NCBI GenBank assembly: GCA_963575745.1
Contig: CAUYUJ010000225.1
Coordinates: forward strand, 1,364,001-1,428,000
Origin: Prorocentrum cordatum
Lineage: Eukaryota
Reading direction: 5' to 3'
Length of the DNA stretch: 64,000 nucleotides
Positions 2 through 46,775 of the stretch are shown here, piece after piece. The first letter of the stretch is position 1, and every line of letters starts with the position of its first letter. Position numbers and translations under genes: made by a program. The notes beneath the pieces are model-generated. The model ran no database searches. It saw only the letters and a program-made list of their open reading frames with translations, and was not told the DNA's origin.

Positions 2-1027
2 CTGGCGAGGTTGATGGGGCGGATTCGGGTGGGGCTCTTTGGTGAGCGGGAGGAGGCGGGCGGCCGTCGCTAGTCCCTGCACTTCCTCCGGGAGGGTGCC
101 GCGCGCTACTGCTGCGGCCACTGTGGCCAGGGCACACGGAACGGACAGGTCAGTTTGGACGAGTTGGAAGTGCTCGTACCGCCACACGTCGGGCCCAGCT
201 GCGCTTCGATTTGGTGCGGCCCGCAAGGCTTTGGCGAAGTGTAGCTCGAACTGTTGCTGCTCGCCGTCCTGTTCGTCGTAGGCGGCTGGTGGCTGTGGCT
301 GATGGTGTGGGAAGAGCTGCGGTGCGGCTTGAAGGGTCAACTCGTCTCCAGCAATTTCGAATGCTTCGCGGAGGACTCTCGTCGCTTTGCCCACGGCGCC
401 TGCCTCCACGAGTTTGCGCGCCGTCATAACGTCGTGCTCTGCGGTAGTTTTCCGCCTGGCGCGCAAAGGAGGTGGGGCGGAGTCAAGGACGGCGCCCCAA
501 AGCTGCGCTTCGCGGTGCTCCCTGATCTCCGAGGCCCGGCGGAACAGCGCAGTGGTGAGCTGAGCGTTGCCTTTCTTGCCGCCTCGGAGGTTGGCGTGTC
601 CGAGCAGTAGCTTAGGGAGCATGAACCAACGCTTGGCCGCCTTGGTGATGGACTCCGGGGTGCCGCGGTGGATCTCGTGGGCGAAAACCTTCGTGTGCTC
701 CGTTATGATGGCGCCCACCACCCCGCGAGCGTGCGGCGGTATATGGGCGGCCGTGGGCACTGGTAATTGGACCATTTCTGGCGTCCCATTCGGCGTTGGC
801 GTCGTTGCTGGCGTGCCTGGCCGTGTCGAGTTGGAGCTGCGCGTCGGCTGGCGCAGGCGGCGCCGGCGCGGTGACGACGGCAGCCCATTTGTGTTCAACT
901 TCTCTTTTGAATACAAAAGGAAGGTCGTCGGCCACTTCCAGGGCAGCGTTGCTGGTCTGGGCGCAGACAAGAGCGCACTCCAAGCAGGCGACGGGGCTCT
1001 GCGGCGCAATGCTTGTGCGACAGCGGA
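2..1027 (-). mobile_element. Non-LTR retrotransposon (CRE-clade-like) reverse transcriptase ORF, N-terminal RT region; continues beyond the window's left edge
   Basis: Stop-free minus frame from 1027 to the edge, translated by hand: ...PTAAHIPPHAR...AAKRWFMLPKLLLG...RGGKKG...ARKLVEAGAVGKATRVL...RSAAGPDVWRYEHF...ARGTLPEEV...ARLLPLTK. A frameshift near 35-40 then gives SPTRIRPINLAS. These match RT domains 0-2 of CRE-type elements (GPDGWRYEHL; L.K..RPI). Confidence 0.85.
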
Positions 1028-2229
1028 TCACCTGCGGCGGTATGATGGAAGTGCACATCGCGCACGTAGCTGCTCTGCCTGTCCGGGGGAGCGTGGCGTA
1101 CCACGTCGCGGCGTCCTCTCGTGGCCGTCGCCGCGATCGTTGCCCGGCAGCGTCGCCTGGTAGGGCGCCAGGCACAGCGGCAGCTGCAGTGCCAGAGCGG
1201 GAGGTTTCGCCAGTTCGTTGCGCCCGAAACCGCCCGTGTCTTGCCTCGAGGGGCCCGTCGTCGGTTGGCGCATTCGTGTCCATATCGTCCGCTGTGGCGG
1301 CCGCGGCCGCGCCAGGGCCTTCCCCGGGGTACCCCAGCGTGCAGTCGAAGCCCAGCTCGCTCCACGTCGCGGCAATTGCAGCTGGCGCCATCCCGTAAGC
1401 TTGGTTCCTCCTGGCCAGCTTTTCGAGCTGCGTCCAAAAGTGGTGACGAGGAACCCGAGGCGTCGGGGCACTCAATGTCGCCGTGGCCAACGTCATCGTG
1501 TAGCTGGCGGCACCGACAGCAGATCCCGTTAGCGCAGCGGCCAGCAGGCAACTAACGAGCAGGACGATCGCGAGAGCGCGCTTCTTGCCATACTTCTGCA
1601 CGAGTCCGCACGCCTTGGAGGGCCTGGCCATGAGGCGCCGCCCGATCGTTAGTACGGCAAGCAGCAGGTCCACAGAGAGACAGGTGAGCACCGCAAGAGC
1701 GCACGTGAGATGGCCTGCGAGGCGCAGCATTGTGAGGGGGATTGGCAGCTGCCGAGTCGGCTCCGGCTGACATCTTGCACTCCCCCGATGGCCGGCGGCA
1801 TTCCATGCCGAGAGTGCCCAGAACAGCAAGGCCGCAAGTACCTGCGACCGTCCGCGGGCGTGCCAGAAGAGGCGCAACGCCCTCTCGGGGACGGTGTAGC
1901 AAGTTCCCCTGGTCCCACCAGTGATTGTGCTGCTGAACGTGGCGCTGCTGGTGTCCGTCGTGCTGGTCAATGTGGTGCCGCTAGTTGCAATGTTGCTGTG
2001 AAGCATGATGTTGCTGGTATTAGTCGTGCTCGTAATGCTTATCGTCGTGCTGGGCGTAGTGGTGTTGTTGGTACCAGTCGCACTCTGAACACTCGCGTTG
2101 CTGCTCTCACCGCTGCTGCTCGACGATGTGTTGGGCGTAGTGGTGTTGCTGGTACTGGGCTCGCTCGGAACACTCATGGTTATACTTGTACCCGTGCTGC
2201 TCGCCGACGTGCTGAGCGTAGTGGTGCTA
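612..2229 (-). CDS. Disrupted ORF: end of the Ser/Thr repeat, 2-3 hydrophobic helices, FDCTLGYPGEGP motif, Cys-rich finger; probably joins the RT frame through a frameshift near 780
   Basis: ORF 612..2177 contains VLAALLFWALSAW, LTCALAVLTCLSVDLLLAVLTI and ALAIVLLVSCLLAAALTG, the motif at 1314-1349, and CAMC...CLEC at 975-1103. After EWDA (~780) the protein-like sequence switches to the RT frame. Confidence 0.6.
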
Positions 2230-5200
2230 GGTGCTGCCGGTACCGGTCGTGCTCGTCACACTCGTGGTTCTGCTCTCCGTCGTACCGCTCGCCGCCGTGC
2301 TCGGCGTAGTGGTGCTGCTGAAGTCGGTCGTGCTCGTCACACTCGCGGTGCTGCTCTCGGTCGTACTGCTCACCGATGTGCGGGGCGTACCCGTGCTGCT
2401 GGTAACAGTCGTGCTCTTTACACTCGTGGTGCTGCTCTCGGTCGTACTGTTCGCCGACGCGCTGGGCGTGGCGGTGCTGCTGACCCCGATCGTGCTCGTC
2501 ACTGTCGTGGTGCTGCTTTTTGTCGAACTGCTCGCCGACGTGCTGGGCGTGGTGGTGCTGCTGGTCTCGGTCGTGATCGTCGTACTCGTGGCGCTGCTCT
2601 CAGTCGTACTGCTCGCCGACGTGCTCGGCGTAGTGGTGCTGCTGAAGTCGGTCGTGCTCGTCACACTCGCGGTGCTGCTCTCGGTCGTGCTGCTCACCGA
2701 TGTGCTGGGCGTACCCGTGCTGCTGGTACCAGTCGTGCTCTTTACACTCGTGGTGCTGCTCTCGGTCGTACTGCTCGCCGTCGTGCTGGGCGTAGCGGTG
2801 CTGCTCGTATCGGTCGAGCTGGTCATGTTCCTGGTGCTGCTCACGGTTGTACTGCTCGCCAACGTGGTGTGCGTAGTGGTGCTGCTGGTACGTCTCGTGT
2901 TCGTCCCACTCGTGGTGTTGCTCTCGGTCGTACTGCTCGCCGACGTGCTCGGCGTAGTGGTGCTGCTGGTCTCGGTCGTGCTCGTCATTCTCGTGGTGTT
3001 GCTCTCGGTCGTACTGTTCGCCGCTGTGATGGGCATAGTGGTGCTGCTGGTCTCGGTCGTGCTCGTTATCCTCGTGGTGCTGCTCTCGGTCGTACTGCTC
3101 GCCGACGTGCTGGGCGTAGTGATGCTGCTGGTACCGGTCGTGCTCCTCACCCCCGTAGTGCTGCTTTCAGTCGTTCTGCTCGCCGAGGTGCTGAGCGTAG
3201 TGGTGCTGCTGGTCTCGTTCGCGCTCGTGGCCCTGGTGGTGCTGCTCTCGGTCGTACTGCTCGCCGACGTGCTGGGCGTGGTGGCGCTGCTGGTCTCTGT
3301 CGTGCTCGTCACCCTCGTGGCGCTGCTCCCGGTCGCACTGCTCGCCGACGTGCTGGGCGTGGTGGTGCTGCTGGTCTCGGTCGTGCTCGGTACCCTCGTG
3401 ATGTTGCTCTCGGTCGTACTTCTCGCCGGCTTGCTGGACGTAGTGGTGCTGCTGGTCTCGGTCGTGCTCGGTACCCTCGTGGTGCTGCTCTCGGTCGTAC
3501 TGCTCGCCGCTGTGATGGGCATAGTGGTGCTGCTGGTCTCGGCCGTGCTCGTTACCCTCGCGGTGCTGCTTTCGGTCATACTGCTCGCCGACGTGCTGGG
3601 TGTAGTGATGCTGCTGGTCTCGGTCGTGCTGGTCATCCTCGTGGTGCTGCTCTCGGTCGTACTGCTCGACGACGCGCTGGGCGAGGCGGTGCTGCTGGTA
3701 CAGGTCGTGCTCTCCACACTCGTGGTGCTGCTCTCAGTCGTACTGCTCGCCGACGTGCTGGGCGTAGTGGTAATTGCCGGTGCCAGATATGCTCGCCCCA
3801 ATCGTGGTGCTGCTTTCGCTTGTTCTGCTCGCCGACGTGCTGGGCGTAGTGGTGCTGCTGTGCCCGTCGTGCTCGTCCCAGTGGTGCTACTTTCGGTTGT
3901 ACTGTTCGCCGACGTGCTGGGCGTAGTGGTGCTGATGATACTAGGCGTGCTCGTCACCCTCGTGGGTCTGCTCTCGGTCGTACTGCTCGCCGACGTGCTG
4001 AGCGTAGTGGCGCTGCTTGTCTCATTCGCGCTCGTGGCCCTCGTGGTGCTGCTCTCGGTCATACTGCTCGCCGACGTGCTGGGCGTGGTGGTGCTGTTCT
4101 CAGTCGTACTGCTCGCCGACGCACTGGGCGTGGCGGTGCTGGTGTCGGTCGTGCTCGTCACCCTCGTGGTGCTGCTCTCAGTCGTACTGCTCACCGACGT
4201 GCTGGGCGTAGTGGTGCTGCTGGTACCGGTCGTGCTCGACACCCTTGTGGTGCTGCTCTCGGTCGTACTTCTCGCCGACGCGCTGAGCGTGGTTGTGCTG
4301 CTGGTACGGGTCGTGCTCGTCACACTCGTGGTGCTTCTCTCGGTCGTACTGTTCGCCGACGCGCTGGGCGTGGCGGTGCTGCTGACCCCGGTCGTGCTCG
4401 TCACAGTCGTGGCGCTGCTTTTTGTCGTACTGCTCGCCGACGTGCTGGGCGTGGTGGTGCTGCTCGTCTCGGTCGTGATCGTCATTCTCGTGGCGCTGCT
4501 ATCAGTCGTACTGCTCGCCGACGTGCTGGGCGCAGTGGTACTGCTGGTGCCGCTCGTGCTCGTCACCCTCGTGGTGCTGCTCTCGGTCGTACTGCTGACC
4601 GACCCGCTGGACGGAGTGGCGCTGCTGGTCTCGGTCGTGCTCGTCACACTCGTGGTGCTTCTTTCGGTCGTACTGCTCGCCGACGTGCTGGGCGTAGTGG
4701 TGCTGCTGGTGCCGGTCGTGCTCGTCCCAATCGTGGTGCTGCTTTCGGTCGTACTGCTCGCCGACGCGCTGGGTGTAGTGGTGCTGCGGGTGGCGGTCGT
4801 GCTCGTCACCCGTGTGGTGCTGCTCTCGGTCGTACCGCTTGCCGACGTGCTGGGCGTAGTGATGCTGCTGGTCTCGGTCGTGCTGATCATGCTCGCGGCC
4901 CTGCTCTCGGTCGTATTGCTCGCCAACGTGCTGGGCGTAGTGGTGCTGCTGGTCTCGGTCGTGCTCGCCCCACTCGTGGTGCTGCTGCATTCTTTTATTC
5001 AACTCGCCGACGTGCTTGACGTCGTGGTGCTGCTGGTCTCGGTCGAGCTCGTCACACTCGTGGTGCTGCTCTCGTTCGTACTGCTCGCCGACACGCTGGG
5101 CGTGGTGGTGCTGCTGGTATCCGTTGTGCTCGCTACACTCGTGGTGCTGCCTTTGGTCGTACTGCTCGCGGACGTGCTGTGCGAAGTGATGTTGCTGGTC

Positions 5201-7403
5201 TCGGTCGTGCTCATCACCCTCGTGGTGCTGCTTTCGGTCGTACTGCTTGCCGACGTGCTGGGCGTAGTGGTGCTGCTGGTACCGGTCGTGCTCGTCACCC
5301 TCGTGGTGCTGCCCTCGGTCGTACTGCTCGCCGACGCGCTGGGCGTGGTGGTGCTGCTGGTCTCGGTCGTGCTCGTCACCCTCGTGGCGCTGCTCCCGGT
5401 CGCACTGCTCGCCGACGTGCTGGGCGTAGTGGCGCTGAGGGTCTCGGTCGTGCTCGTCACAGTCGTGGTGCTGCTTTCGGTCGTACTGCCCTCCGACGTG
5501 CTGGGCGTGGTAGTGCTGCTGATCTCGGTCGTGCTCGTCCCAATCGTGGTGCTGCTCTCGCTCATGCTGCTCGCCAACGCGCTGGGCTTAACGTTGCTTC
5601 TGGTACCTACCGTGCTGATTATACTCGCGACGCTGCTTTCGCTCGTACTGCTCGCCGACGTGCTGGGCGTAGTGGTGCTGCTGGTCTCGGTCGTGGTCGC
5701 CACCCTCGTGGTGCTGCTCTCGGTCGTACCGCTTGCCGACGTGCTGGGCGGAGTGGTGCTGCTGGTAGCGATCACTCTCGTCATACTCGTGGTGCTGCTC
5801 TCGGTCGTAGTGCTCTCCGACGTGCTGGGCGTAGTGTTGCCGCTGGTACTGGTTGTACTCGTCATACTCGTGGTGCTGCTCTCGGTCGTACTGTTATCCC
5901 TCGTGCTGGGCGTGGTGGTGCTGCTGGTATCCGTCGTACTCGTCATACTCGTGGTGCTGCTCTCGCTTGTATTACTCTCCGATGTGCTGGGCGCAGGGGT
6001 GCTGCTGGTGGCGTTCGTACTCGTGATTCTCGTGGTGCTGCTCTCGATCGTACTGTTCGCCGACGTGGTGGGCGTAAGGGTGCCGCTGGTACTGGTCGTA
6101 CCCGTCTTACTCGTGGTGCTGCTTTCAGTCGTAGTACTCTCCAACGTGCTTGGCGATATGATGCTGCTGGTTCGGGTCGTACTCGTCATACTCGTGGTGC
6201 TGCTCTCGGTCGTACTGCTTTCCGACGTGCTTCGCGTAGTGGTGCCGCTGGACAGGTCTTACTCGTCACACTTGTGGTGCTGCTCTCGGTCGTGCTGCTC
6301 GCCACAGCGCTGGACGTAATGGTGCCGCTGGTACTGGTCTTACTCGTCATACTTGTGGTGTTGTTCTCAGTCGTATTGCTCGCCGACGTGCTGGGCGTAG
6401 TGGTGACGCTGGTACCGGTCGTACTCGTCATACTCGTGGTGCTGCTCTCGGTTGTACTGCTCGTCGACGTGCTGGGCCTAGTGGTGTCGCTGGTACTGGT
6501 CGCACTCGTCATACTCGAGTTGCTGCTCTCGCTCGTACTGCTCACCGACGTGCCGGACGTAGTGGTGCCGCTGGTAATGGTCGCACTTGTCATACTCGTG
6601 GTGCTACTCTCGGTCGGACTGCTCACCGACGTGCTGGGCGTAGTGGTGCCGCTGGTACAGGTCGCACTTGTCATACTCGTGGTGCTGCTCTTGGGCGGAC
6701 TGCTCTCCGACGTGCTGGGCGTAGTGGTGCCGCTGGTACCGGTGGCAATCGTCATACTCATGGTGCTGCTCTCGGTCGTAAAGCTCACCGACGCGCTGGG
6801 CATAGTGGTGCCGCTGGTACAGGTCTCACTCGTCATACTCGTGGTGCTGCTCTCTATCGTACTGCCCTCCGACGTGCTGGGCGTAGTGGTACCGTTGATA
6901 CTGGTCGCACTCGTCATACTCGTGGTGCTGGTCTCGGTCGTACTGCTCCCCGACGTGCTGGGCGTAGTGGTGCCGCTGGTACCGGTGGCACTCGTCATAC
7001 TCGTGGTGCTGCTCTCGGTCGTACTGCTATCCGACACGCTGGGCATAGTGGTGCCGCTGGTACAGGTCTCACTCGTCATACTTGTGGTGCTGCTCTCAGG
7101 GGTACTGCCCTCCGACGTGCTGGGCGTAGTGATGCCGCTGGTGCCTGTCGCACTCGCCATACTCTTAATGCTGCTCTCGGTCGTCCTACTTTCCGACGTG
7201 CTGGGCGCCGTGGTGTCGCTGGTACCGGTCGCTGTCGTCATACTCGTGGTGCTGTTCTCGGTCGTAATATTCGCCGACGTGCTGGGCATAGTGGTGCCGC
7301 TGATACCGGTCGCTCTCGTCATACTCGTGGTGTTGCGTTCGGTCGTACTGTTCTCCGACGTGCTGTGCGTAGTGGCGCCGCTGGTACCGGTCGCACTCGT
7401 CAT
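1930..7403 (-). pseudogene. Mucin-like Ser/Thr-rich coding tandem repeat, 81-bp/27-aa unit (about 67 copies), interrupted
   Basis: Unit is TTESSTTRVTSTTETSSTTTPSTSASS; ORFs 6186..7469, 4999..6189 and 2227..4926. Lesions: 1-nt loss near 6251, in-frame TGA at 4999-5001, compensating frameshifts near 3775 and 3858, 7-nt insertion with a stop near 2229. Confidence 0.75.
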
Positions 7404-8569
7404 CCTCCTCCTCCTCCTCCCTCTCCTCCTCCCTCCTCTTCCTCCCTCCCTCTCCTCCTCCCTCCGCACTCGTCATACCTGGTACCGGTCTCATCCTCCT
7501 CCTCCTCCCTCTCCTCCTCCTCCCTCCTCTTTCTTCTCCTCCTCCTCCTCGTCCTCAGGCTCTCCTTCTCATCTGCTTCATTATGCTTCCTTCTCCTCCT
7601 CCCGACTCCCCCCCATCCCTCCTATTCCTCTTCTTCCCAGCTCCTCGCGACTATCCTCGGGTGACGGCGTCGAGGTGGACGAAGATTTGATTTTGATAGA
7701 CGCTCCAGTGCTGAACGAACGCGCCCCTGCTCCAGTCGGCGCATTGCCCCAAAACGAACTGGACAGAGTGCAGAAGCTAAGGCAAATATTGGCCGGGAAG
7801 GTTTTCCCGAGTCATCACCCAGTTTCCATGGGTCCCACCTGTTGCACAATGAACGACACCGCGCACTGCGCAATGGTGCCGACGAGTTGCACTAAGGATG
7901 CGCGGGAGGGCGAGGACTATGCAGAAAACTGGTGAGGATGGGAATGGCGATGAGGTGGAGCTGGATCAGCAAGAGGACGCGAGCCTGGGGGCCCGGAGCA
8001 GGCAGACTTGCAGGGAGTTAGGCAGGTATCCTCTCCAGAACCTACCACCGCTCCTCTGAAGGGCCCAGGGCTCTTCCCCGACCCCCATCCCGGAAGTCCC
8101 CATCCCCCTCTCCACGTCCTCCTCCTTCGTCCTCCTCCATCCTGCTACCCCGAGTCGCAGTCTTCCTCCTTGCCCCCCTGATCCTCCTCTTCCTCTTCCT
8201 CCTCCTTCTCACCCTGCTCTTCCTCCTTTACTCTTGCACCCCAATCCTGCCATCCATGAGCCCGACGAGCGCTTCAATGCTTACGCACACCTGATCCACA
8301 CACCTTTCAGGTATCCTACATGCTACGCACAGTCGAGCTTGATTTGAGAGGACACGCGAGGAAGAAGCAAGACCCTTCCAGGGGCCACAATGCCGTAGGA
8401 ATCCAGAGGCATGGGTGGCTACAATAACAGGACGCAAAGATGTCCTTGATCTGGCAGTGTCGGCCTACAAATCAAACTCGACTGTACCTTTGCAGCCTCT
8501 GCTCCAATACCGTATTGAATCCGCTTCACCTCCAGGAGCTATAAACTCCGACCCCCGAATTCCAAAGTT

Positions 8570-9480: not shown

Positions 9481-10874
9481 CTGACCCAAGGATGAACAGG
9501 CAGAGGATTCGGAGGGAGTAATGGGGGGAAATGTTGCGAATGGTGCTGACGCCTGACCGCTGGCCACATCCTTGGTTGGGATAAAATCTCTCCCCCTATG
9601 ATTCACAGGGAAGAAGTCTCTCCCGGCCATGTCTCAGGATTTCAAGATTGCGCCTTAGTTGCACTCTAGATGCGCGCTACGAAGGCCGCGCGGCCTGGGC
9701 GAGGGACGCGGGCGGATCGCGGATTGCGCGCGCGAGTCTCGCCCGCCCGCGCGCGCAAACGCCCGCGCGCGCCCGCCCGCCGCCCGCTTGCGCGACCGCC
9801 CGCCCCCTCGCCCGCCCGCGCCCGCGCCCGCCCGCTGGGCCGCTGGCACCCCCGTTGCATACCGACGCAGCTCGCCGATGCATGTCGGAGGAATGCGCAG
9901 CAATGCGATGCAACTCGAAGGGACACAAAGCGACTCGAATGAGACGCGGCCAGGGCTCTGGACGGAGAGCAGTCGGGAGTGCCGAACGGGCGTTTCACGC
10001 GCGGCCCTCGAATCGAAAGCTGAGTTGCTTGCCTCTCTGTTGGGGTGGCTCCGAACGCCCGCCTGGCCGGGGCCAAGCTGATCCGCGCCAGGATCCATGG
10101 CCATGTCGACGGCGGACTCTCTGGGCTGACAGCCCGGGCAGACATGTTCTGGATTCCTCGCTCGTGTCGGGGCCGCGCTCTTTGCGGCGTCGTCATCGAA
10201 AGTCCAGCAGTACTGCGTGCACTCGGCGTTCCAACTCCTGCATGACTGCCTGATGACTTGTCGCGTGCATGCGTTATCGCATGCTTGCGCGTTGACGTCG
10301 GAGTGGTTCTCTCGCCGTCAGCTGGCCACCGCGTTGTTTTATGCTTTGAATGTGGTTTTGGGTGATATGTGTCTGGACGCAAAAGTCGGATGGCTAGTCA
10401 CAGACGTTCCACAGCCCCATCCATGGCGCGCTACCCTCCCAGGCGTGTTTAGCACACACACACACACACTCCCGAATTTGTCTGCAGGGATTGCCGCTTG
10501 CAGATTGACGGAGTGATCCCTGCTACCCGAGGGAGTGTTCCGATTTACCTCTTGGATTCGGCCTCCGAGCTGGGGTCGCAACACGAAAAAATGCTACTCT
10601 GGCGAAGAACCAACCCATTCTACACGCGTGAAGGTATCAACAAGACCACTCGCTGCACAAGAACTCTTTGAGGGGGGTCGCAATTCCCCTGAAAAATTCG
10701 CCAGAGAAAATCGAACCCGGCTCAGCATGCAGTCAGGCGACTCAATTCACACGCGGATGTTAGCTGTGCATGCGGCGCGGAACACGAGAGCGGGGACTGT
10801 GGGAGCAGGAGGAGGGATCATGGGCAACCTCACCTTTGAGCCAAATCGCGTCGCGGATCACGCGCCATGCTCGT

Positions 10875-11335
10875 GGGGGGTGCGCCAGGAGGGACCCGAA
10901 TCACCATGCGGACGCAGCCACTGGGGCCTTCTGGGGAGCTCCCTATGAGGCCACGAAGCGTGCGAGGGTTGTGCCAAAAGGGACCCGAGTCACCATGCGG
11001 ACGCAGCCTCTGGGGCCTTCGGTGGGGCTCCCTATGGGGCCGCGAAACCTTTGAGGGGTGTGTCAAAAGGGGCCCGAGACACCAAGCGGACGCAACCACT
11101 GGGGCCTTCGGCGGGGCTTCCTACGGAGCCACGACACGTGTGAGGGGTGTGCCAGAAGGGACCCGAGACACCAAGCGGACGCAGCCACTGGGGCCTTCGG
11201 CGGGGCTTCCTACGGGGCCACGAAACGCGTGAGGGGTGCGGCCGAAAGGGCCCGAGTCACCGTGCGGACGCAGCCACTGGAGCCTCTGGTGGAGCTCCCT
11301 ATGGGGCCACGAAACGCGTGAGGGGTACGCCGAAA
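10875..11335 (+). repeat. 89-bp minisatellite, about 5 copies
   Basis: cggacgca at 10909, 10998, 11087, 11176 and 11265 (exact 89-bp spacing). Confidence 0.95.
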
Positions 11336-11491
11336 CGGTGATGAGAATCGTGATGGTGGTGGCGATGGTGATGGTGATGCTGATGGTGGTGGTGATGACG
11401 ATGGTGGTGATGATGATGATGATGATGAAGAAAATGAAGATGAAGATGAAGATGAAAATGAAGATGAAGATGAAGATGAAGATGAAGATGC

Positions 11492-11528
<37 letters not shown>

Positions 11529-11538
11529 AATAATGATA

Positions 11539-11586
<48 letters not shown>

Positions 11587-11622
11587 ATGGTGATGATGAT
11601 GATGATGCTGATGGTGATGGTG

Positions 11623-11654
<32 letters not shown>

Positions 11655-11686
11655 ACTGATACTGATACTGATACTGATACTGATAC

Positions 11687-11733
<47 letters not shown>

Positions 11734-11757
11734 CCGATGATGATGGTGATGGTGATA
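11336..11757. repeat. (GAT)n compound microsatellite
   Basis: Direct reading. Confidence 0.95.
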
Positions 11758-45699: not shown

Positions 45700-46775
45700 G
45701 CGTGGGTGTGTTTTTGTAAGGAATGAACATGTTTGGAAGTGAAAAACCACCCGACGGGCCGAACCAACTTGTGGTTCACGTCGACGGCTGTTTTTTTTCG
45801 GGGCCCCGGATGGGAGCGTCTGGCGCTCTGCGGGCACGCTGGCGCCGAGGGGCCGTCGTGTGCGTGCGTGTGTGTGTGTGTGTGTTTTCGTAAGGAATGA
45901 GCATGTGCGCGGACGCAGAGCAACCCGACGGGCCGAACCAATTTTTGGTTCACGCTGACGGTTGCTTGTTCTTTTTCGTGCTCGGGATGGGGGGCGTCTG
46001 GCGCACTCCGGGCACGCTGGCGTCGAGGGGCTGTCGTGGGTGTGGGTTTTCGTAAGGAAAGAGCATGCCCCGGGGCGCGGAACCACCCGACGGGCCGCAC
46101 CAATTTTTGGTTCACGTCGACGGTTGCTTGTTCTTTTTCGGGCCCGGGATGGGGGGCGTCTGGCGCCCTCCGGGCACGCTGGCGTCGAGGGGCTGTCGTG
46201 GGTGTGGGTTTTCGTAAGGAAAGAGCATGTCCCGGGGCGCGGAACCACCCGACGGGCCGCACCAATTTTTGGTTCACGTCGACGGTTGCTTGTTCTTTTT
46301 CGGGCCCGGGATGGGGGGCGTCTGGCGCCCTCCGGGCACGCTGGCGTCGAGGGGCTGTCGTGGGTGGGCTTTCGTAAGGAAGGAGCATGTCCCGGGGCGC
46401 GGAGCCACCCGACGGGCCGAACCAATTTTTAGTTCACGTTGACGGCTGCTTGTTCTTTTTCGGGCCCGGGATGGGGGCCTCTGGCGCCCTCAGGGCACGC
46501 TGGCGTCGAGGGGCTGTCGTGGGTGTGGGTTTTCGTAAGGAAAGAGCATGCCCCGGGGCGCGGAGCCACCCAACGGGCCGCACCAATTTTTGGTTCACGT
46601 TGACGGCTGCTTGTTCTTTTTCGGGCCCGGGATGGGGGGCGTCTGGCGCCCTCAGGGCACGCCGGCGTCGAGGGGCTGTCGTGGGCGTGGGTTTTCGTAC
46701 GGAAAGAGCATGTCCCGGGGCGCGGAGCCACCCAACGGGCCGAACCAATTTTTGGTTCACGTTGACGGCTTCGTT
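45700..46775. repeat. 160-162-bp tandem satellite, about 6.5 copies, followed by two ~76-bp copies ending near 46905
   Basis: cgtaagg/cgtacgg at 45889, 46051, 46213, 46373, 46534 and 46696. Confidence 0.95.

Follow-up and report, generated by a model that had tools for sequence, protein, structure and literature searches.

What does a short peptide ending in Gly-Pro do in the middle of a retroelement reading frame, just where a membrane-like portion gives way to the part that leads into the reverse transcriptase (RT)? The question is raised by a stretch of 64,000 nucleotides from Prorocentrum cordatum (contig CAUYUJ010000225.1, positions 1,364,001 to 1,428,000 of the forward strand; the whole stretch is called the window here), in which open reading frame (ORF) 612..2177 on the minus strand, 521 residues long, holds the sequence FDCTLGYPGEGP at window 1349..1314 (ORF residues 277-288). 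This sequence occurs once within the 64-kb window and matches at all 12 positions (F1, D2, x3, T4, L5, G6, [YF]7, P8, G9, E10, G11, P12) the consensus FDxTLG[YF]PGEG-P, which, on the comparisons reported here, is a portable, widespread 12-residue junction module that recurs far beyond chance. We refer to it as the FD motif and regard it as a probable self-separating peptide of a new kind. It is quite likely that the two sides of the motif become separated, by whatever mechanism, and we assign a probability of roughly 0.5 to the specific reading that this separation is co-translational and 2A-like, at the bond between G11 and P12.

In the window, the motif stands at a module boundary, with a transmembrane (TM)-like hairpin on one side and, on the other, a linker of low complexity followed by a Cys-rich stretch and a pre-RT region (Table 1). 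The hydrophobic segments of the hairpin were called by Kyte-Doolittle hydropathy (19-residue means, peaks up to 2.4), and about 50 residues lie between the second segment and the motif. A preliminary description of this DNA had seen a Gly-Pro motif between a membrane part and a nucleic-acid-binding/RT part. The placement, at 1314-1349, stands, and the strand, which was left unstated, is the minus strand; however, the RT domain proper lies outside the window, which ends before it, and the nucleic-acid-binding call comes from inspection of the sequence. Pfam searches of both window ORFs and of 20 further large window ORFs returned nothing informative, also for the Cys-rich stretch, which judging from its sequence is a possible zinc-binding module. 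The Cys at variable position 3 of the window copy recurs in loci L101 and L239 (FDCTLG[YF].GEGP). A Trp stands 8 residues before F1 in the window (..TWSELG FDCTLGYPGEGP), and Trp at this place is generally not kept among the matches described below.

A degenerate DNA pattern was used for comparison because a 12-mer is invisible to whole-protein searches. A phmmer search with the translation of window:612-1760(-) against 1.84 billion representatives gave three matches, none of which covers the motif. Word-index protein searches returned the P. cordatum protein P0004 as the sole match in one case, nothing in a second and three unnamed proteins in a third, and thus no named host taxa beyond P. 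cordatum. The pattern TTYGAYNNNACNYTNGGNTWYNNNGGNGARGG is a degenerate back-translation of the motif in which F1, D2, T4, L5, G6, [YF]7, G9, E10 and G11 are fixed while positions 3, 8 and 12 are free. In metagenome contigs at least 120 loci matched, and the matches listed include 116 non-redundant ones, of which 99 have P8, 100 have P12 and 92 have both. Among IMG/VR viral contigs 106 stretches matched (97 non-redundant), with P8 in 93 and P12 in 91 of the 97. By contrast, when 596 Gb of prokaryote genomes were scanned as a control, just 40 matches (not de-duplicated) came up, with P8 in only 6 and both prolines in 5. Most of the 34 control matches that lack P8 fall into three bacterial protein families (FDGTLGYAGEGV, FDFTLGF[RQES]GEGF and FDFTFGY[KR]GEGN). 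The 6 with P8 lie on short contigs of metagenome-assembled genomes (MAGs) with flanks resembling long interspersed nuclear elements (LINEs), or in a DIRS-like stretch of a contig filed as a bacterial MAG. The motif is therefore conserved at the protein level, as the preliminary description had expected. Relaxed scans indicate that the core G[YF]PGEGP is its most constant part; K, V, M and C also occur at position 5 and N rarely at position 2. An alignment-based search for related loci in metagenomes gave 44 pattern matches and confirmed none of them.

The preliminary description had also mentioned FDxTLG(F/Y)PGEGP as recurring in dinoflagellate retroelement-like proteins. Recurrence holds true, the dinoflagellate part of it being represented by the window and one P. 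cordatum protein. Most instances are found in metagenomic retroelements and RNA-virus contigs, a range far wider than had been proposed.

Among the metagenome matches listed, all synonymous codons are used at every position of the motif. T, G and P are encoded by all four of their codons (for Thr: ACC 35, ACT 21, ACG 20, ACA 16), Leu by both CTN and TTR, and Ser by both TCN and AGY; the flanks of these matches are mutually unrelated. Since synonymous sites vary freely and the flanks are unrelated, the constraint acts on the peptide and not on DNA or RNA. A signal at the level of DNA or RNA, such as a recombination site, a promoter or a structure, was ruled out by the use of every synonymous codon.

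The suggestion that the motif is biased in position was likewise confirmed, as it marks junctions before or after RT, endonuclease, tyrosine-recombinase, RNA-dependent RNA polymerase (RdRp) and coat modules. Wherever Pfam recognizes domains in a motif-bearing ORF, the motif stands at a boundary and never within a match. LINEs carry it 5-25 residues before the start of Exo_endo_phos: the motif and the endonuclease start are at residues 61 and 80 in L038, 30 and 49 in L043, 29 and 51 in L078 and, with 1077 ORF residues upstream, at 1078 and about 1093 in L051; L012, L054 and L013/L063 are further LINEs with the motif before the endonuclease. The full-length LINE relative P0005 consists of a Met, a leader of 51 residues, the motif, APE and RT, while in P0006, a LINE relative only 33% identical, 494 residues lie upstream and the motif stands 5 residues before APE.

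DIRS-like elements place the motif after RVT and a C5-methylase (DNA_methylase) in L006, before the tyrosine recombinase in L050 and L033, and, in L075 and L162, between the end of RNase H and the N-terminus of the recombinase. Among the matches listed, 30 of 102 assessed metagenome matches have a signal- or TM-like hydrophobic run within a few residues behind GEGP, and these loci belong to a large family of DIRS-like pol ORFs. The pol of SymbioDIRS-Dnmt3 has the same RT-DNMT architecture as L006, and the passages of the paper available to us mention neither cleavage nor a 2A-like sequence (PMC5890265). RVT_1, DNA_methylase and Dam occur in minor shares in clusters neighbouring L016, which can serve as leads only.

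Two of the retroelement loci deserve separate comment. L162 (G001:C3:2748000-2767999) is part of a 2.87-Mb contig filed as an alphaproteobacterial MAG; this stretch is poor in ORFs, has an uneven G+C content of 0.42-0.65 and is probably eukaryotic DNA inside the MAG. Its DIRS-like element has three motif copies near locus 9900-10270, between the RNase H end and the recombinase. L034:2619-2882(-) has a perfect FDSTLGYPGEGP except that a stop codon stands immediately before its F1; this may reflect read-through, another genetic code or a decayed copy.

RNA-virus contigs show the same preference for junctions. Tombus-like contigs have a coat ORF followed by an ORF with a basic leader of 60-200 residues, the motif, zf-CCHC/CCCH and RdRP_3; in four such viruses, 27-34% identical to each other, the motif residues (12/12) form the sole invariant block within the N-terminal 300 alignment columns. 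Replicase and coat are fused in one ORF in the noda-like L227, with the motif between them. In picorna-like contigs the motif follows the C-terminal FPF[IV]F of the RdRp at a distance of 19-29 residues in 8/8 contexts. Two to four motif copies per ORF were found in 16 viral loci, and in L211 four copies split an ORF of 1962 residues into five parts, the coat protein among them. The viral locus L235 has a textbook signal peptide (LLLLIALVCGLGTQTNLAMA) directly behind the motif. Pfam searches (hmmscan) of the motif-bearing ORFs and inter-motif segments found no protease family.

Some of these viral contigs have additional features. In the tombus-like L079:1536-2279 and L025:1348-2131, the replicase ORF lacks an in-frame AUG from the preceding stop codon up to the motif, and between this ORF and the coat ORF lie about 560 nucleotides in which every frame contains stops. 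One possibility is that translation starts at an internal ribosome entry site or at a non-AUG codon and that the motif serves to trim away the leader. L255 contains three tandem units of about 48 residues, each a basic peptide (..RGG[SA][KQ]HP[KR]DVARDA..) ending in the motif, an arrangement like that of the VPg copies, small peptides present as repeats, in some picornaviruses.

What we consider, on the sequences compared, the strongest argument that the FD motif acts like an NPGP motif comes from junctions at which the two replace each other. A regular expression for classical 2A, [DEG]xEx[NH]PGP, matched nothing in 120 + 104 loci and was too narrow. When four picorna-like polyproteins were aligned and the ORFs then scanned simply for [NH]PGP, a second punctuation motif emerged, [RK][FYIV]GEAx[NH]PGP, at 16 non-redundant sites in 11 viral ORFs that also carry the FD motif (the viral contigs listed are L169, L173, L177, L187, L197, L208, L215, L234, L237 and L253). 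Among the matches listed, no such site was found in motif-bearing ORFs of at least 150 residues from metagenome retroelements. Of 10 non-redundant contexts upstream of a conserved small domain (..YHGNWGGPNY..HDYNY..), 7 show ..FGEASNPGP and stand for approximately four lineages, L197, L202, L215 and L253 being near-identical. The other three contexts (L173, L218 and L265) have FDxTLGYPGEGP instead, at the same distance from the small domain. At the next junction the FD motif is found in L197, GEASNPGP in L173 and a degenerate EFSPAGNHKGDGP in L169 and L208. Because the two motifs swap at homologous junctions of related polyproteins, the FD motif appears to work like the NPGP motif.

The small domain (..HGN[WY]xGPN[WY]..(D)..HD[YF]N.., about 100-130 residues) is framed by separator motifs and was seen in L169, L173, L187, L197, L218, L237 and L265. 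Its pattern is presumably similar to the YxGxG/HDxxY of viral phospholipase A2 (PLA2; parvovirus VP1u); Pfam gave nothing for this domain and no PLA2 family for the inter-motif segments. As for the GEAx[NH]PGP motif, it is found in ORFs that also carry the FD motif, takes the place of the latter at the same junction in relatives and ends in NPGP as 2A does. It differs from GxExNPGP in that its Glu is one position further from NPGP, and its own activity is putative. We did not find it in the possibly incomplete text and supplements of two 2A surveys (PMC12338488; PMC13405545), nor, variants included, in the other literature searched.

According to the reading that we prefer, positive-strand RNA viruses and several retroelement orders would insert the module between functional proteins of one long ORF. 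With the conserved nascent peptide in the ribosome, the bond from the last Gly to the Pro would not be made, the upstream protein would be released with the C-terminus ...PGEG, and translation would resume from the Pro. The window element would thereby yield first a small membrane protein with two helices, its last residues being ..GYPGEG, and then a soluble Cys-rich/RT(-nuclease) protein beginning with Pro. The terminal G-P, the conserved P12, the 2A-like distribution, the presence of multiple copies and the interchange with NPGP favour such a StopGo peptide, and so do the signal peptides directly behind the motif, since these need a free N-terminus during chain synthesis. A broader version, to which we give slightly less credence, is that the module represents a third, NPGP-less class of ribosome-skipping peptide that evolved in or for marine protist hosts. 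It would have been shared horizontally as a 12-residue cassette among tombus-, noda- and picorna-like RNA viruses and LINE, restriction-like endonuclease (RLE)-type and DIRS-like retroelements. Membrane, structural and enzymatic proteins would then be made from one ORF, possibly on host read-through transcripts that lack a start codon of their own.

Several observations weigh against this reading. The motif shares just the terminal G-P with 2A and has no NPGP, GD(V/I)E or EEGIE. Its upstream context is rich in K/R, with basic residues frequent at -1 and -2. Position 12 is H in 7 of the 116 metagenome matches listed and in 3 of the 97 viral matches, and two further viral matches have T and one has Q. 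Residues other than Pro are found in intact ORFs (H, T or Q in L107/L114, L165, L168, L200 and L248), H occurring in the diverged intact LINE copies L107 and L114 and in the intact viral ORFs L165 and L168, and L replaces the last Pro in P0003, a distant relative of the window element. A strictly Pro-dependent skip would fail in such sequences. About half of the N-proximal metagenome instances among the matches listed have no upstream in-frame ATG; introns, a different genetic code or initiation at a non-AUG codon might account for this. In addition, all comparative loci were picked by the motif, and motif-free contexts are unevenly sampled. The separator function proposed in the preliminary description thus gains from conservation, junction bias and NPGP interchange and loses from a last Pro that can be replaced by H, T, Q or L.

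The tolerance at position 12 would be accommodated if the module were the recognition site of a conserved host endopeptidase that cuts post-translationally anywhere in the 12 residues. Viruses and retroelements without a protease would, in this case, borrow a host enzyme for cutting their polyproteins. This would account for the placement at junctions and the use of multiple copies, for the occurrence of H, T, Q or L instead of P12 and of E, Q or A instead of P8, and the basic residues at -1/-2 could add a dibasic site. We nevertheless regard a host endopeptidase as unlikely. Twelve near-invariant residues far exceed the usual needs of a protease site. Pro at P1' is disfavoured by most proteases, and P12, the most conserved of the free positions, would be exactly such a residue. 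Moreover, the motif swaps with an NPGP ending, the hallmark of a non-proteolytic mechanism, and a signal peptide directly behind the motif would presumably need an N-terminus that becomes free co-translationally in order to act as a cleavable signal.

Another possibility is that no separation occurs and that the module is a short linear docking motif for a conserved host protein, for example one with a role in localisation, in translation or in the handling of RNA. The block is short, and the regions in which it is conserved are otherwise unconserved, in many cases basic and probably disordered, which is the appearance of such a motif; tandem copies 27-88 residues apart could bind multivalently, and partial tolerance at position 12 would be no obstacle. 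This seems to us even less probable than a protease site, as docking does not account for a motif placed immediately in front of signal peptides and of the starts of domains, for its standing in for an NPGP motif where junctions are homologous, or for the fusion across it in L227 of replicase and coat, two proteins that are normally made separately. Readings as PAM2/MLLE, late-domain or sortase-like motifs seemed to fit poorly and were dropped.

Returning to StopGo separation, the FD motif can be compared with the known separators, and every peptide-bond-skipping sequence known to us ends in (N/H)PGP. Class A 2A peptides (FMDV F2A, T2A, P2A and E2A; also those of L1Tc/ingi and other APE-type non-long-terminal-repeat retrotransposons) are likewise short and autonomous with a G-P end. 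They too stand between proteins of one ORF, in positive-strand RNA viruses and at LINE ORF heads, sometimes in several copies, and are compatible with a signal peptide directly behind them. Studies by Odon (2013) and Heras (2006) reportedly describe 2A at the head of LINE endonuclease/RT ORFs. Unlike class A 2A, the FD motif has a longer invariant block, a K/R-rich upstream context and a last Pro that is occasionally H/T/Q, and its skipping is putative.

In the accessible portions of the surveys, class A is given a core of GD(V/I)E or GxE (PMC12338488; PMC13405545), and active 2As have a Leu-rich helix upstream (PMC13405545). The window copy shares with class A its location between proteins of one ORF and outside folded domains. 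Its ending ..YPGEGP is not NPG/P with at most one deviation, as GEGP differs at two positions, and T-L-G-Y occupies positions -8..-5, where the class A core, 5-8 residues before the break, would be expected. Class B 2A, for which the same portions report an invariant W ... EEGIEP[H/N]PG/P and an occurrence in double-stranded RNA viruses, ticks, dinoflagellates and the TSAR clade (PMC12338488), is likewise a separator class found in dinoflagellates; unlike the FD motif it keeps the PGP end and the invariant Trp, while the window copy has neither EEGIE nor a PGP end. The cleavage sites of picorna-like 3C and poty-like NIa proteases are also short junction signals repeated along a polyprotein. 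However, they are read by a self-encoded protease and differ between virus families, whereas the FD motif is an identical 12-mer across unrelated viruses, LINEs and DIRS-like elements, for which Pfam shows no protease.

The motif is apparently undescribed and, by its sequence, a candidate for a third class of separator peptide. As far as their accessible parts tell, the 2A surveys were anchored on PGP or NPGP (PMC12338488; PMC13405545), the candidates of the latter being NPGP with at most one deviation; with (N/H)PGP as the search anchor, neither could have seen the FD motif. PGEGP is absent from those of their supplementary files that were searched, a possibly incomplete set, and queries with motif strings gave no relevant paper in the literature searched, which did not cover subscription literature. 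If the StopGo reading is true, skipping would have a second sequence solution unrelated to the first, and this would reveal the actual requirements of the ribosome, or of a host factor, for skipping. In marine RNA viruses and protist retroelements, hundreds of "giant ORFs" would have to be re-annotated as strings of separate proteins, and the presence of membrane proteins and nuclear enzymes within one dinoflagellate retroelement ORF would be explained. It might also yield a co-expression tool, perhaps for algae and protists in which classical 2A performs poorly. Even as a protease site or docking motif, an identical 12-residue block across unrelated viruses and transposons would point to a conserved host dependency that has so far gone unrecognized.

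The window copy itself is dead, as an 11-nucleotide deletion at 784 separates the motif frame from the RT frame. Contigs of three public runs (X1, X2 and X4) have 11 extra bases, GATGGCGTCCG, behind window 784; one run contig covers 600-1896 with this difference as its sole gap, and P0004 reads ..AEWADAITPEMVQ.. at the deletion site, in agreement with the undeleted run contigs. A second frame break is located near 1735 relative to P0002 and P0004. Homology to other copies extends 5' of the candidate start codon, in another frame, to at least about 1926 (loose ends at 1896). The run contigs are approximately 96% like the window, and no difference is listed within 1314-1349, which is uninformative at that similarity. 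These frame breaks, together with a window G+C content of 59% and plentiful chance ORFs, raise the question of whether the motif in this copy is a functionless relic and the membrane-RT fusion an artefact of chance ORFs in GC-rich DNA. We consider this improbable, more so than the explanations above, as motif and RT region share one frame in the other copies represented by run contigs and the arrangement of hairpin and motif is kept in P0003 at 39% identity. In any case it would concern this copy alone and not the module.

The closest NCBI protein, P0004 (CAK0827826.1), is an unnamed protein of P. cordatum with 80% identity over the part from hairpin to motif. Pfam places RVT_1 at residues 834-988 and finds no Exo_endo_phos in it, and a phmmer search against PDB gave 0 matches. 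Its C-terminal C..C..H..C/RRNN..E..D presumably resembles that of R2, and partly on this likeness the host element may be RLE-like (R2/CRE-like), a type that has an RVT_1 RT without an APE domain and a C-terminal CCHC plus PD-(D/E)xK nuclease. In the metagenomic relative P0003 both hydrophobic segments persist, as does the place of the motif, where it reads FDSTLGFSGEGL. P0001 and P0002, which are 94% and 82% identical to the window element, carry the EukProt label Pyramimonas, a green alga; that data set is likely to be mislabelled or contaminated.

Table 1. Features of the junction-motif element and repeats elsewhere in the window
Feature	Position in window	Strand	Basis
FDCTLGYPGEGP, copy of junction module FDxTLG[YF]PGEG-P	1314..1349	-	translation and module consensus
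Proposed break G/P	G codon 1317-1319, P codon 1314-1316	-	
Hydrophobic segment 1, TM-like (ORF residues 153-180)	1638..1721	-	hydropathy; hydrophobic also in P0002, P0003 and P0004
Hydrophobic segment 2, TM-like (ORF residues 200-224)	1506..1580	-	hydropathy and comparison with relatives
Low-complexity linker behind motif (Ala run, acidic and basic stretches)	1065..1313	-	94% identical in P0001
Cys-rich stretch CAMC-x22-CLEC-x3-C	963..1064	-	sequence inspection
Pre-RT / RT N-terminal region, in ORF 2..1009(-), running off window start	2..784	-	90% identity to P0004 residues 747-797
Candidate start codon of element ORF (MLRLAGH...)	1728..1730	-	predicted from translation and P0002/P0004
11-nt deletion specific to window copy, frame shift between motif ORF and pre-RT ORF	784..785	.	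run contigs and P0004
81-bp tandem array, about 64 units, 27-residue Ser/Thr-rich (mucin-like) repeat	2046..7407	-	
89-bp repeat, 5 units	10873-11326		
(GATGAT)n array, about 65 units	11352-11756		
Repeat of ~160 bp reading ..APDAPHPGPEKEQA..	45800-46640	-	

In a further run, X8, a piece of ~45-90 nucleotides within window 1392-1479 has a summed contig depth of ~10,000, compared with 200-600 beside it. Loose ends flank this piece (1403/1409 and 1451), and it looks like a short segment common to many other abundant sequences. The 81-bp array lies directly upstream of the element and is split into 3-4 ORFs, its last units being in frame with the motif ORF. This repeat might be part of the membrane or surface protein of the element, or it might mark the insertion site of the element.

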